Positions 1 to 63,426 of a stretch of DNA of 64,000 bases are shown in pieces. The notes beneath the pieces are model-generated. The model had not been told where the DNA came from and did not search any database. It saw only the letters and a list, made by a program, of their open reading frames with translations. The stretch comes from Methanothermococcus sp. Ax23 (lineage in GTDB: Archaea; AGJL01; Methanococci; Methanococcales; Methanococcaceae). The position numbers were made by a program, and so were the translations under genes. Positions within the stretch are counted from its first letter, which is position 1. Each line of letters starts with the position of its first letter. The DNA is taken from assembly GCF_049075655.1 (NCBI RefSeq), contig NZ_CP157522.1:1312001-1376000 (forward strand), read 5' to 3'.

Positions 1-790
1 ATATCCAATAGTTGAGCATCTTGTATGGGGCGGAGGATTTGCAAGTTTAGGAATATCCTTTGCTGACTATGCAGGAAGTGGAGCAGTTCATTTATTCGGT
101 GGTTTAGTTGGATTGGCTGCGGCATGGGCATTAGGTCCAAGACTCAGAAAATACATAAACGGTGTTCCACAGGCATTGCCAGGACACAACATTCCAATTG
201 CTGTTTTAGGTGCATTTATATTGGCATTTGGATGGTATGGATTCAACATAGGAAGTGCATCAGGTGTTGGTGATGGTTTAGAGCTCGTGCAGGTTGCAAT
301 AGCTACAACAATGGCACTTGCAGGAGGTATAGCAGGAGGAGCTCTGAGCTCAAGAAATGACCCACTCTATACAGCAAACGGTATGTGTGCAGGACTTGTT
401 GCAGTATGTAGCGGTGTTAATATATTCACACCAATAGGAGCTCTGGTAGTTGGACTTATAGCGGGATTACAACAGCCATTCACATACAAGTTTATTGAAG
501 AAAAATTGAAAATAGATGATGTTTGTGCTATTGGACCTGTTCATGCTATGAGTGGTTTTATAGGTGTAATCTGTGCAGGTATTCCATTTTTATTAAGGGA
601 CCCATCAGCAACATCATTTGTTGGTCAGGCGATTGGGGCAATAGTAATTGCTTTAATAGCATTAATCGGTGGTGTAATTATATACAAAGGGCTTGATTTA
701 ACAATAGGTTTAAGAGTTTCAGAGAAAGCAGAGAAAGAAGGACTCGATGAAGGTGTTCTTCAAGTAAGGGCATACTCTGAAATGGATTAA
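1..790 (+). CDS. amtB: Ammonium transporter (Amt), 5' part outside the window
   Basis: Frame is open from base 2 (YPIVEHLVWGGG...DYAGSGAVH); Amt motifs GPR, FGWYGFN and DDVC...VH. Confidence 0.95.
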   Translation, partial: YPIVEHLVWGGGFASLGISFADYAGSGAVHLFGGLVGLAAAWALGPRLRKYINGVPQALPGHNIPIAVLGAFILAFGWYGFNIGSASGVGDGLELVQVAIATTMALAGGIAGGALSSRNDPLYTANGMCAGLVAVCSGVNIFTPIGALVVGLIAGLQQPFTYKFIEEKLKIDDVCAIGPVHAMSGFIGVICAGIPFLLRDPSATSFVGQAIGAIVIALIALIGGVIIYKGLDLTIGLRVSEKAEKEGLDEGVLQVRAYSEMD

Positions 791-901
791 TATAATATAT
801 TCATAATAATCCTTAATTATTTTTTATTTTAGGAATTAGGATTCTTCTTTCCGTGGTAATCTATTTATCTAATTTTAAACTTTAATTATACTGGTGATAA
901 C

Positions 902-1240
902 ATGAAGAAGGTTGAAGCAGTAATTAGACCTGAAAGAATGGATATTGTTAAAAACGCATTAGCAGAAGCTGGTTATATTGGAATGACCGTTAATGAAGTT
1001 AAAGGTAGAGGTATTCAGGGAGGAATTACCGAGAGATACAGAGGAAGAGAATATATTGTTGATTTAATCCCCAAAGTAAAAATTGAAGTTGTAGTTAAAG
1101 AGGAAGATGTGGAGGAGGTAATTAAAATCATCTGTGAAAATGCTAAAACAGGAAACCCCGGGGATGGAAAAATATTCGTTATGCCAGTTGAATCAGTTGT
1201 AAGGGTAAGAACTGGCGAAAAAAATGAAAATGCTATTTAA
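902..1240 (+). CDS. glnK: PII nitrogen regulatory protein (GlnB/GlnK)
   Basis: 112 aa PII with T-loop [14 protein letters not shown] and RVRTGE; GGTGA RBS. Confidence 0.93.
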
Positions 1241-1355
1241 TTATTTCATTAATTTTTTTACCATTTCATTTTTCACTATTTTTATTTATTTCATATTTTA
1301 CTTATTTTCATCTTATTTTACAATATTTATTGATGTAATTAAATTATTAAATTTT

Positions 1356-1370
1356 CGAAAGGTATATATA
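1356..1370 (+). promoter_or_regulatory. BRE-TATA promoter of the second glnK-amt unit
   Basis: CGAAAggTATATATA about 25 nt upstream of the operator. Confidence 0.7.
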
Positions 1371-60878: not shown

Positions 60879-60901
60879 TAAAAATAAAAAATGGTGAAAT
60901 T

Positions 60902-62482
60902 ATGGATAACTTAGAGCTCTTTAAAATACTTTTAAAAAATTATAAAATAAAAAATAAAAATAAAGAATACATTTCACCAAAAGAGATGAATATTACAGAT
61001 AATAATTGCGAGTATTTAGGAATTCCAAAAATAATTCTTATGGAAAATGCTGGTAAATCCATTGCTGATGAAGTTGTGAATTATTTAGATGAAAATAAAA
61101 AAAATAAAATATATATATTCTGCGGACTTGGGAACAACGGAGGAGATGGATTTGTTGCTGTTCGTCATTTAATGGGATACTGCGATTATATGGATGAAAT
61201 CTCAAAATCCTTCGGATTTTTACGATTTCCTTCGCTTCGCTCGGAAATAAATGTAATACTACTTGGAAAGGAGAATGAAATAAAAACCTATGAATCAAAG
61301 GAAAATTTTAAGATTTTAAAAAATATAAGTGAGCTGGATTTTAGGTTAAAAATAAAAGAAGCCATATGCCCAAATGAAATTTTAAAGGTAATTGAAAATA
61401 TTAAATCAGAAAAGGAAAATGTAATAATCATAGATGCCATGCTGGGAACAGGCATTAAAGGGGAGCTCCGAGAACCATTTAAAACTGTGGTAAATGGACT
61501 GAATAAATTAAAAAACGATAATGATAAAAGCAATAATTTGAAAATAATCTCCGTAGATACTGAAACTAAGGGATTAAATGCAGATTTGATAATTACATTC
61601 CACAAATTTAAGTTAGGTAATGATTTAAATAAAACCAATATTAAAAAAATAGGTATTCCACCAATAGCTGAGCATATAGTTGGATGGGGAGATTTAAAGG
61701 CATTAGCTAAAATAAATCCAAATTCTCATAAGGGGGACAATGGAAAGGTTTTGGTTGTTGGCGGTTCTAAGGAATTTTTCGGAGCTCCGATTTTATCTGC
61801 ATTGGCATCTTCAAAAATAGTGGATTTGGTAACTGTTGCATCTGTTAAAAATACAATTGATGCTTTAAGAAACTATCCTGAATTAATGGGTTATGAAATT
61901 GAAGGGGATTATTTTGGAGGGGAGCATGTGGATGAAGTTGTAGAGCTCTCTAAAAAATATGATGTTGTTGTTCTTGGAAATGGATTAAGTGTAAATAATA
62001 ATACAAAAAAGTTTGTAAATGGATTTTTAGAGGAAATGGAAAAATTAAATAAAAAGGTAGTAATAGATGCAGATGCTATAAAGGTTATAGGTTATAATAA
62101 TTTTAATTTTAGTGAGAATTTTATATTCACTCCCCATAAAAAAGAATTTGAATATATGGGACTTAATGTTAATGATAATATGGATATATCCAATATAAAC
62201 TCCACAATAGTTTTAAAGGGAAAATACGATTTAATATTCAATAAAAATAATATAAAAATAAACAAAACAGGAAATGCAGGTATGACTGTTGGAGGAACAG
62301 GAGATGTTTTATGCGGAATAATCGGTGGATTATTTAGTAAAAATGACGCCTTTATTTCAGGATGCTGTGGAGCATTTATAAATGGGTATGCGGGAGATTT
62401 ATTGCTTAAAGAGAAAGGATATTACTATAATGTTGTTGATATATTAAATAAAATACCAAATGTTTTAAATATATTTCAGTAA
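60902..62482 (+). CDS. nnr: Bifunctional NAD(P)H-hydrate epimerase/dehydratase
   Basis: LMENAG, GNNGGDG, DAMLGTG, HKGDNG, DADA, TPH..EF, GGTGDVL. Confidence 0.93.
   Translation: MDNLELFKILLKNYKIKNKNKEYISPKEMNITDNNCEYLGIPKIILMENAGKSIADEVVNYLDENKKNKIYIFCGLGNNGGDGFVAVRHLMGYCDYMDEISKSFGFLRFPSLRSEINVILLGKENEIKTYESKENFKILKNISELDFRLKIKEAICPNEILKVIENIKSEKENVIIIDAMLGTGIKGELREPFKTVVNGLNKLKNDNDKSNNLKIISVDTETKGLNADLIITFHKFKLGNDLNKTNIKKIGIPPIAEHIVGWGDLKALAKINPNSHKGDNGKVLVVGGSKEFFGAPILSALASSKIVDLVTVASVKNTIDALRNYPELMGYEIEGDYFGGEHVDEVVELSKKYDVVVLGNGLSVNNNTKKFVNGFLEEMEKLNKKVVIDADAIKVIGYNNFNFSENFIFTPHKKEFEYMGLNVNDNMDISNINSTIVLKGKYDLIFNKNNIKINKTGNAGMTVGGTGDVLCGIIGGLFSKNDAFISGCCGAFINGYAGDLLLKEKGYYYNVVDILNKIPNVLNIFQ
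61196..61248. repeat. 48 nt in-frame double-hairpin insertion in nnr
   Basis: AAAATCC-TTC-GGATTTT plus ATTTCC...GCTTCGC...GGAAAT between GAAAT copies 48 nt apart; homologous to 4718-4769. Confidence 0.78.
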
Positions 62483-62532
62483 TATATATTATATACGAGC
62501 ATATCCGACTAATAAATTATAAAAGGGGTATT

Positions 62533-63426
62533 ATGGAAGATGAATATTCAAAAGCAGATTTACACATTCATTCAAAATATTCAGGGATAATGAAATACAT
62601 GGGGCTAAAATTTCCAGATTCTGTGGAGGAACCAAGAAATATTATGAAGCATGCCAAAAAGAAAGGTTTAGATGTAATTGCCATTACGGACCATAACACT
62701 ATAAGGGGAGGGTTAGAAACTAAAAAACTTGAAAAAGAATACGGTGTTGAAGTTATTGTTGGAAGCGAGATAATGACGAAAGATGGGGAAATTTTAGGAT
62801 TATATCTAAATGAAGAAATTCCAAAAGGGCTATCTGCTGAGGAAACCATCGAAAAAATTCATGAACAGGGTGGTTTAGCAGTAGCTCCTCATCCATACAG
62901 CCCAATATGTAAAGCAATAGGAGACAAGATTTTTAAATTAAATTTAGATGGGGTGGAGGTATTCAACGCATACCATAGGGATGGAATAGTAAATAATATA
63001 GCATTAAAGAAGGTAATGAAAAATTATCACAAAAAGCCTGTGGCATTTATAGGAAACAGTGATGGACATTTGGCAAAAATGGTTGGTAATGGATATACAA
63101 AATTTGAAGGAACTTCAAAGGACGATTTATATGATGCAATAGTTAGAAGAAAAACATCTTTTGACGGAGCTCCTACACCCCTATCTGATATTATATTATG
63201 GAGCTATAATGTGGTTTATGTCTCTGAAAAAACACTTATAAAATCCATGGTATCTAAAAACGATTTGAATATAAAATTTTATAAAAAACTTCTTGCAATG
63301 TTCGGCGGTTTAATATATATTGCCACACCCCTTCCAATAATTTCCGGGGTTATTGGCAATTACTATCTTAAAAGAAAAGCTAAAAGCAAATTAAAAGAGG
63401 TAAATCTGACCTACTCCAACGACTAA
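62533..63426 (+). CDS. PHP-domain metal-dependent phosphoesterase; last codons supplied by the inserted element
   Basis: ADLHIHS, ITDHN, GSEI, PHP, GNSDGH. Confidence 0.9.
   Translation: MEDEYSKADLHIHSKYSGIMKYMGLKFPDSVEEPRNIMKHAKKKGLDVIAITDHNTIRGGLETKKLEKEYGVEVIVGSEIMTKDGEILGLYLNEEIPKGLSAEETIEKIHEQGGLAVAPHPYSPICKAIGDKIFKLNLDGVEVFNAYHRDGIVNNIALKKVMKNYHKKPVAFIGNSDGHLAKMVGNGYTKFEGTSKDDLYDAIVRRKTSFDGAPTPLSDIILWSYNVVYVSEKTLIKSMVSKNDLNIKFYKKLLAMFGGLIYIATPLPIISGVIGNYYLKRKAKSKLKEVNLTYSND

Follow-up and report, generated by a model that had tools for sequence, protein, structure and literature searches.

GAGCTC sites in the window

The DNA analysed here is a stretch of 64,000 nucleotides (hereafter the window) from the chromosome of Methanothermococcus sp. 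Ax23 (NZ_CP157522.1, positions 1,312,001 to 1,376,000), and the subject of this report is the palindrome GAGCTC, which recurs throughout it. The source genome (G000) comprises a chromosome of 1.663 Mb with 31.9% GC and a plasmid of 7.7 kb. The window codes for eRF1, heterodisulfide-reductase-type and energy-converting-hydrogenase-type proteins and DUF2100, as befits an archaeal methanogen. Genes were called as the longest open reading frames (ORFs; 1513 of at least 100 aa) and do not represent a curated annotation. For comparison we used 30 relatives (31 genomes in total), four of which, G003, G010 and G012 of the same genus and G013 of a sister genus, share the abundance of the word and are grouped with G000 as the five high genomes. 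An earlier note, made from the letters of the window, had reported about 70 GAGCTC sites by hand count, located in several reading frames as well as between genes. At the positions that it listed we counted 73, of which 67 are coding, in three frames, and six are non-coding:

281..63172: GAGCTC sites in ORFs, 36 read as GAG-CTC (Glu-Leu), 22 as xGA-GCT-Cxx and 9 as xxG-AGC-TCx
21772, 21821, 45142, 51749, 51793, 52582: non-coding GAGCTC sites
339-344 and 346-351: two sites 7 bp apart in one ORF but in different frames; the first is kept in G012, where the second reads AAGTTC
58569..63426 (+): dense conserved stretch with nine sites, encoding a P-type ATPase, an NAD(P)H-hydrate repair enzyme and a PHP-domain protein

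Many of these sites are kept in the other high genomes, namely 45 of the 55 testable sites in G012, 21 of 39 in G010, and 9 of 29 in G013. In the dense stretch at the end of the window, all testable sites are kept in both G012 (8/8) and G010 (9/9).

Size and specificity of the excess

The GAGCTC excess is real, strong, and genome-wide, and extends over chromosome and plasmid and over genes and spacers. In 100 dinucleotide-preserving shuffles of the window the word occurred 3.23 times on average and 10 times at most, and none of the shuffles reached 73. Genome-wide, 2089 copies compare with 124.7 expected from base composition (16.75x), which places GAGCTC first among all 4096 hexamers, with the runner-up palindrome at only 2.6x. 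This corresponds to a density of approximately 1.25 sites per kb in resident DNA, and the plasmid carries four copies against 0.35 expected. A maximum-order Markov null, under which the ratio of observed to expected counts (O/E) is 1.6, was rejected for this word because its conditioning pentamers are themselves inflated by GAGCTC.

The excess is confined to the exact hexamer. The nine strand-symmetric one-mismatch variants occur at 0.04-1.21x, without a bias to the outer positions, and GAGCTN with N other than C sums to 493 copies versus 2085 for GAGCTC. The tetramer AGCT occurs at 1.03x overall, with 41% of its copies sitting inside GAGCTC, so that the frequency of AGCT does not account for the hexamer. 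The sequence surrounding the sites holds at most 0.21 bit of information per position; because the flanks carry so little information, no longer repeat stands behind the word. The earlier note had described a habit of GGAGCTC and GAGCTCC contexts, and this preference is real yet only mild: a G at position -1 accompanies 38% of the G000 sites, and 33% of those in non-coding DNA versus a background of 13%.

Coding DNA holds 1927 copies versus 117 expected (16.4x) and the non-coding remainder, 15% of the chromosome, 158 versus 9.3 (17x). All three reading frames are enriched, with genome-wide counts of 1092, 615, and 219. Shuffling synonymous codons within genes left 188±15 copies (30 shuffles, maximum 218) compared to 1928 observed, and shuffling codon order left 112±9, so codon preference is insufficient, as the earlier note had supposed. 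That note had also named two results that would speak against its claim, namely an excess that vanishes under a codon-preserving null and one no greater than predicted from AGCT; both comparisons were run, and the excess withstands them. The word GAG-CTC spells 1092 of the 3903 Glu-Leu dipeptides, 16.6 times the product of the codon frequencies, and its one-step synonymous neighbours are depleted to 0.30x (GAA-CTC) and 0.31x (GAG-CTT) of the codon expectation. It is hardly conceivable, then, that GAGCTC merely reflects a preference for certain codons or dipeptides, or that it belongs to a longer dispersed repeat: half the coding sites do spell Glu-Leu, a common dipeptide, but the synonymous shuffle yields a tenth of the count, enrichment extends to every frame and to non-coding DNA, flanks stay below 0.25 bit per position, and the spacing of sites is Poisson-like, being near exponential with a coefficient of variation of 1.09.

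The word also leaves a footprint on proteins. Among the 184 sites found in only one of G000 and G012, 115 involve an amino-acid difference, typically Glu-Leu versus Glu-Ile, Glu-Phe, Lys-Leu, or Asp-Leu. Glu-Leu has an O/E of 1.17-1.24 in four high genomes compared to 0.92 in the congener G005, and ranks 18th of the 400 dipeptides by this measure. Ala-Pro is in excess (O/E 1.32) only in G010, versus 0.90-1.02 elsewhere, as is expected if the octamer GGAGCTCC is written there as GGA-GCT-CCN.

Relatives and dialects

The four other high genomes contain approximately 1300-2100 copies of GAGCTC. Nine other congeners are near expectation or far below it, and counts in the remaining relatives range from 26 to 229. 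Whole sequences were used for G000 and G005, and 400-kb samples for G012, G010, and G013, in which the excess amounts to 21.8x, 16.2x, and 11.9x, respectively. G005 lies at the other extreme, with 3 copies versus 39.9 expected in its first 400 kb (0.075x) and 14 versus 150 in the whole genome (0.09x).

The high genomes differ in the form of the word. In G010, 282 of 393 sites are GGAGCTCC (525x), with AGAGCTCT (4 versus 3 expected) and CGAGCTCG (0) both at chance. G000, G012, and G013 use the hexamer with any flank: each of the four symmetric contexts is enriched 6-14x, and a G occupies position -1 in only 35-38% of sites. Species relationships were taken from a single-gene (eRF1) tree, which places G000, G003, G012, and G010 together (support 96/97) and G013 with a genus of normal counts (96/86), with the base of the group unresolved.

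The AGCT word family is strongly counter-selected in sister lineages, which is the familiar pattern of restriction-site avoidance and opposite in sign to that in G000. In G005, AGCT is found only 535 times (0.11x), and GAGCTC has a Markov O/E of 0.80; its shortage of GAGCTC is due to the avoidance of the whole tetramer. A restriction system specific for GAGCTC, considered for the depleted congeners, was accordingly rejected for G005. Between two genes that are adjacent in G000, this genome carries a two-gene insertion (C1:46254-48234) encoding a 254-aa DPPF methyltransferase (PF01555) and a 415-aa protein without a Pfam family. The C-terminus of the latter has a Cys-X7-Cys-X2-Cys-X5-Cys arrangement and weakly resembles the MutY iron-sulfur loop (E=8e-6, far below cut-off). 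Copies of the methyltransferase (78-82% identity) were otherwise found only in G015, G021, and G029, which among the complete genomes have the fewest GAGCTC copies (26, 49, and 80). With AAGCTT as a proxy for AGCT across relatives, G015 has 105 copies versus 315 in a congener, and G021 and G029 have 148 and 226 versus 374-1222 in their genus. The incomplete GAGCTC-poor genomes G001, G002, G007, and G008 are also poor in AAGCTT; searched with this query, they yielded no copy of the methyltransferase, at a completeness of 54-89%. Taken together, the gene content and word counts point to a candidate AGCT-directed restriction system, probably mobile, that may circulate in the group with an unfamiliar nuclease or glycosylase as partner. 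The remark in the earlier note that some archaea methylate an AGCT core thus finds an echo, albeit in the GAGCTC-poor relatives that avoid AGCT words, four complete ones of which have this mobile methyltransferase. As a separate observation on G005, the non-palindromic, purine-rich words GAGGAG/CTCCTC, AGGAGG, and GGAGGA are over-represented 8-10x, with approximately 3000 copies each.

Conservation, loss, and gain of sites

The turnover of the word was followed in 333 reciprocal-best ortholog pairs of G000 and G012, which are 86.7% identical in amino acids over aligned codons, G012 being 15% diverged. Of 440 G000 sites, 349 read GAGCTC at the orthologous place; 91 were specific to G000 and 93 to G012. 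At conserved Glu-Leu dipeptides, GAGCTC was kept in 87% of cases, compared to 64% for GAATTA, the commonest dicodon, and 0-59% for the others, with rare dicodons at 0-43%. The third position of the Glu codon in its G-state differs with a frequency of 0.04 before CTC versus 0.47 elsewhere, and that of the Leu codon after GAG in its C-state with 0.016 versus 0.57. The reverse holds for the states one step away from the word: the A-state of the Glu codon differs with a frequency of 0.88 in GAACTC (n = 17) versus 0.136 elsewhere, and the T-state of the Leu codon after GAG with 0.50 (n = 12) versus 0.089. Sites are thus lost 12-35x more slowly and gained approximately 6x faster than in the same codons elsewhere. 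The odds at equilibrium move by a factor of 70-100 where the word encodes Glu-Leu; in non-coding DNA the shift is 4-100-fold and mostly 10-35-fold.

These rates bear on the idea that a bound protein or a modification merely shields the word by lowering its mutability under GC-to-AT pressure. The slower loss is about the size of the 17x excess, as such shielding would have it, but no shielding can raise the rate of gain, and the draining of the neighbours GAA-CTC and GAG-CTT also speaks against it, so that we regard this explanation as very improbable. Since gain is faster and loss slower, the data argue for a fixation bias in favour of the intact palindrome rather than for protection from mutation, and a bias of S ~2.5-4.6, which corresponds to shifting the odds approximately 10-100-fold, predicts such a symmetric pattern. 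Compared with the same codons outside, synonymous differences within sites are rarer by 2.9-13.6x for transitions and by 4.4-6.4x for transversions. Positions 2, 3, 4, 5, and 6 of the site could be tested separately and all of them are constrained; the whole word is read, and not just a deaminating cytosine.

Outgroups indicate that the sites continue to turn over. At lineage-specific sites the outgroup has the word in 9 of 49 cases (G010) and 5 of 29 (G013), and at sites shared by G000 and G012 in 47 of 136 and 25 of 67, respectively. Lineage-specific sites thus include both gains and losses, and the word is in turnover equilibrium rather than frozen. G010 shares 112 of 381 G000 sites (29%) and G013 93 of 357 (26%). 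At conserved Glu-Leu dipeptides, GAGCTC co-occurs at 2.35x (G010) and 1.81x (G013) the frequency expected for independence, versus 1.57x for a control dicodon; at this distance, the majority of sites have been replaced or have arisen independently. The Glu-Leu dipeptides encoded by GAGCTC are retained in G005 at 105 of 194 places, and other Glu-Leu dipeptides at 229 of 442; since the former are no better conserved, protein constraint is not the cause of site conservation.

Newly arrived DNA is unmarked

Several parts of the window are devoid or nearly devoid of the word:

12845..14143 (-): insertion between cbiQ and cbiM with a DDE transposase ORF (13211-13780); no GAGCTC
15747..16798 (-): multi-copy element with ORFs of 166 and 140 aa, the first matching an ISC1217-type transposase; no GAGCTC, several copies in the genome
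30933..43392: cassette encoding proteins of glycosyltransferase, radical-SAM/SPASM, methyltransferase, and polysaccharide flippase type; 24-28% GC

The earlier note had pointed to two insertion sequences (ISs) without a site and to a cold stretch further downstream, and both observations were borne out. The stretches with transposase ORFs (12628-15341 and 15375-17861) contain no GAGCTC, and a single site (38304) lies between 30927 and 43393. Throughout the genome, DNA with three or more other copies (31.3 kb, including the transposase-bearing elements of the window) is likewise free of the word. The rRNA operons are at chance, each holding two sites in ~5 kb of 56% GC for which composition predicts ~1.5.

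The glycan cassette, with one GAGCTC in 12.46 kb, has approximately 15 fewer than the genome density predicts and contains one of the genome's only four GAGCTC gaps above 6 kb. Its collinear counterpart in G013 (C1:1629425-1642723) is 83-90% identical in nucleotides, compared to 70-76% in the flanks, and has no GAGCTC in 13.3 kb. Four of the cassette genes have no ortholog at the syntenic locus of G012 (matches of 23-33% only). Given this identity relative to the flanks and the partial absence from G012, the cassette is one that has been exchanged laterally, and its predicted products would serve the synthesis of a cell-surface polysaccharide.

Both cassette copies fit the restriction-word avoidance of their own host: the G000 copy has 3 GATC, 1 GTAC, and 1 ACGT versus 29 expected, and the G013 copy 13, 9, and 7 versus 32 expected. 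The cassette has been purged of restriction words and yet is unmarked; therefore, marking with GAGCTC proceeds more slowly than the removal of restriction sites, which agrees with the measured site turnover. That the multi-copy IS-like repeats and the exchanged cassette are still unmarked shows that GAGCTC accumulates slowly.

On the subject of word avoidance, we also observed that CTNNAG palindromes (CTGCAG, CTTAAG, CTATAG, and CTCGAG) and GTNNAC palindromes (GTGCAC, GTTAAC, GTATAC, and GTCGAC) are reduced in G000 to 0.03-0.14x of the expectation from composition and 0.05-0.16x of the Markov expectation, and GATC, GTAC, ACGT, and CTAG to 0.03-0.14x. This suggests several active restriction systems, some of which may read degenerate six-base words.

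Distribution along the chromosome

Sites are spread over the chromosome evenly in density and randomly in position. Each 10-kb bin of the genome holds 5-23 sites, density is not correlated with GC (r=-0.04), and the ratio of variance to mean lies between 0.88 and 1.21 for bins of 1 kb to 50 kb. No periodicity was detected, the strongest period in the 5-200 kb range having a permutation P of 0.28, and non-coding sites match the background in their position relative to start codons.

This distribution is relevant to direct per-site selection through an abundant nucleoid or chromosome-organising protein that binds the word, which corresponds to the reading that Xu, Lawrence and Durand gave of HIP1, the highly iterated palindrome of cyanobacteria, for which PMC5861425 argues for selection and a nucleoid role. 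Such a protein could account for the even density, for the indifference to start codons, and for the conservation of sites beyond neutral expectation, in ORFs as well as between them. However, with no 5-200 kb periodicity and a variance-to-mean ratio of ~1, the pattern that motivated this reading of HIP1 is missing, and spacing is Poisson-like rather than regular. The small plasmid is enriched as well, only a minority of the G000 sites are shared with G010 and G013, and the chance-level or 10-fold depleted counts in close congeners imply that the function would be dispensable. We therefore consider selection by a nucleoid protein possible but doubtful.

Search for the agent

The earlier note had offered three interpretations, of which a chromatin mark and an uptake or recombination signal are both possible; the third is a methylase-linked repair bias, and our searches do not favour it. 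In the model proposed by Elhai for HIP1, a methyltransferase would mark GAGCTC or AGCT, and methylation-dependent mismatch or short-patch repair would restore and create the word. Several points speak for such a process here: the abundance of HIP1 tracks cognate methyltransferases, according to passages of PMC4390886; AGCT-specific N4-methylcytosine (m4C) methyltransferases are on record for several archaea in listings within PMC11033074; G000 has methyltransferases without an assigned target, including a 300-aa SPPY enzyme; and a repair bias could restore and create sites alike. Nevertheless, family searches for PF00145, PF01555, PF02384, PF02086, and PF07669 revealed no member common to the five high genomes. 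No C5 methyltransferase (PF00145) scored above cut-off in G000, G003, G010, or G012; PF01555 had no strong hit in G012 and a single one in G010; PF02384 and PF07669 gave nothing strong in G010; and D12-class enzymes (PF02086) were strong only in G012 and G003. Vsr was detected in none of the five, while controls matched. The constraint on A/T positions and transversions, equal to that on C-to-T changes, and the absence of an outer-position bias among the one-mismatch variants also argue against methylation-linked repair. In a methanococcal strain, the single-molecule real-time (SMRT) methylome comprises m4C at CTAG, N6-methyladenine at GTNAC, GCACY, and CGAG, and inferred 5-methylcytosine at ACGT, with no AGCT-containing motif, and the text of PMC10113651 has no mention of AGCT, although that strain may not carry the word. 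Overall, methylation-linked repair seems improbable.

One methyltransferase was examined as a shared determinant and ruled out. G010 carries a restriction-modification-like pair (C1:206898-208851) of a 217-aa protein and a 446-aa SPPY methyltransferase, its only strong methyltransferase hit (PF01555), next to ribosomal-protein and RNA-polymerase-subunit-like genes, but neither G000 nor G012 has this two-gene insertion at the corresponding locus.

Other candidate functions were sought by family and by gene content. RE_SacI (PF09566) was found in none of the 31 genomes, but in none of 14 controls either. ComEC (PF03772) and DprA (PF02481), which belong to the competence machinery of bacteria, were likewise found in none of the 31 genomes, while 10 and 11 of 14 controls matched. 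A gene-content screen gave 297 of the 1513 G000 ORFs without a homolog in G005, of which 33 were inspected by eye and six by Pfam. Two of them, Nre (Nre_N and Nre_C domains; C1:309902-311143) and a 345-aa protein without a Pfam family (C1:1138458-1139495), were found in each of the five high genomes and are missing from all nine non-high congeners. Both also occur in the genera g3 and g4 and in part of the family f2, which have normal GAGCTC counts, and were rejected as the agent since they track genome reduction and not the trait. Every group member with a larger genome has them, and the nine congeners, at 0.9-1.7 Mb (six of at most 1.3 Mb), have neither; this distribution suggests that genes, among them one for a DNA-repair factor, were lost across the lineage.

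The high genomes also share no recent island: stretches of 300 bp and above with at least 92% identity number only 3, 5, and 1 between G000 and the samples of G013, G010, and G012, respectively. A separate case is the pair of genes at C1:830853-832066 of G000, which encode an OsmC-like and a small ferredoxin-like protein with 95-100% protein identity in G010 and G013 (94-98% in nucleotides), compared to a proteome average of ~73%. This pair has no homolog in G005 and is either very strongly conserved or recently exchanged.

Interpretation and comparison with known systems

GAGCTC is an archaeal highly iterated palindrome kept by a weak per-site fixation bias. As the agent of this bias we propose a binding protein acting in recombination, and we assign the reading as a whole a probability of roughly 55%. 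All testable positions count, the strands are equivalent, and six-base and eight-base dialects exist; therefore, the agent is likely a dimeric sequence-specific binder. Most likely, a dimeric protein reads GAGCTC in double-stranded DNA, and the bias would arise as alleles compete during recombination or gene conversion, the competitors being either the genome copies of a polyploid cell or incoming DNA. The outcome would be a molecular drive comparable to that behind uptake sequences in bacteria and recently suggested for HIP1 as well, and the process would not involve methylation-directed mismatch repair. On the evidence above, we rank a protein-read word favoured in recombination or exchange before nucleoid selection, and the latter before methylation-linked repair. 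As to the class of the agent taken alone, recombination or uptake-type drive is our tentative choice, and an agent outside drive, nucleoid selection, and methylation repair is less probable but should be reckoned with.

A number of points weigh against this proposal. No protein agent was found, in a gene-content screen that was partial, covering G005 whole and G012, G010, and G013 as 400-kb samples, and both of its leads occur in genomes of normal GAGCTC density. An uptake route has no gene support, given the result for ComEC and DprA. The cassette passed between two high lineages has one site in G000 and none in G013, which is awkward for an obligatory uptake signal. Per-site selection and biased conversion give the same signature, the rates of gain rest on 17 and 12 alleles, and an unconventional methyltransferase would escape family searches.

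The label HIP1-like, which the earlier note had applied to the word, is apt for a short palindrome whose great excess extends to every frame and to non-coding DNA, which is conserved from genome to genome, and which has variants specific to individual lineages. Passages of PMC4390886 and PMC5861425 describe HIP1 as 15-300-fold over-represented, conserved, periodic at 10-90 kb, and tied to methyltransferases, and part of the recent literature proposes it as a DNA-uptake signal. Like HIP1 (GCGATCGC), GAGCTC is a short GC-rich palindrome with an excess of at least 15-fold, occurs approximately once per gene, in every frame as well as in intergenic DNA, and is shared by related genomes more often than neutrality would predict. 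As with the alternate palindromes of cyanobacteria, lineages differ in their word, with nested forms (GAGCTC and GGAGCTCC) around an AGCT core. In contrast to HIP1, GAGCTC resides in an archaeal host and is a hexamer in most lineages, its carriers have no methyltransferase family in common among those tested here, it lacks the 10-90 kb periodicity, and its mismatch variants show no preference for the outer positions.

The closest parallels outside cyanobacteria are the DNA uptake sequences (DUS) of Neisseriaceae and the uptake signal sequences (USS) of Pasteurellaceae, non-palindromic words of 9-12 nt that occur approximately once per kb in genes and spacers and have effects on peptides. They come in dialects among related lineages and are depleted in recently acquired DNA, and a drive favouring site-bearing alleles explains their accumulation. 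GAGCTC resembles them in its density, its dialects, its peptide footprint, and its absence from new DNA, but is a palindrome of 6 or 8 bp, and the 31 genomes yielded neither ComEC nor DprA. No uptake assay for these archaea was found in the literature searched. Another process that enriches a word is the short-patch repair by Dcm/Vsr in enterobacteria, which raises the frequency of the methyltransferase target CCWGG and acts only on T:G mismatches at the methylated C. Unlike that system, the GAGCTC-bearing genomes lack Vsr (five high genomes) and a C5 methyltransferase (G000, G003, G010, and G012), transversions and A/T positions are constrained as well, and the excess is far larger.

A more specific and rather unlikely version of the proposal is a methylation-independent 'self word' system of some methanococcal archaea, in which a dimeric factor would recognise GAGCTC (GGAGCTCC in one lineage) and bias gene conversion or DNA exchange. 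If true, the self word would spread by drive through polyploid genomes and plasmids, its dialects could bar exchange between lineages, and it would rewrite protein sequences, making it an archaeal analogue of uptake sequences and a first handle on the origin of iterated palindromes.

For three decades, the highly iterated palindromes of cyanobacteria have defied explanation, with current views split between methylation repair, the nucleoid, and uptake. An independent archaeal case means that the phenomenon is not a cyanobacterial oddity and, as no shared methyltransferase was found, removes one favoured ingredient; no earlier report of a GAGCTC excess in archaea was found in the open-access full-text literature. 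Close relatives in three states (17-fold excess, chance, and 10-fold avoidance) and two dialects provide a natural comparative design for identifying the agent, and the combination of slower loss, faster gain, and slow marking sets quantitative targets for any mechanism. In practical terms, the word dates foreign DNA in these genomes and explains odd codon-pair and dipeptide usage, and SacI- or AluI-type enzymes are predicted to cut G000 DNA very small.

Further features of the window

Two further observations concern individual genes of the window. A 276-aa ORF at 11194-12024 (-) has a weak HNH match, 24% GC, and no GAGCTC, and no homolog was detected in G012, G010, G013, or G005. It lies between cbiO and cbiQ, in an operon for a cobalt transporter, which the transposase insertion at 12845-14143 interrupts as well. 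At 26163-28868 (+), a UDP-glucose/GDP-mannose dehydrogenase gene contains an intein carrying a LAGLIDADG domain. The 901-aa intein-bearing protein is found at full length in G012 and G010 (86% identity), and G005 and G013 match only ~29% of its length.

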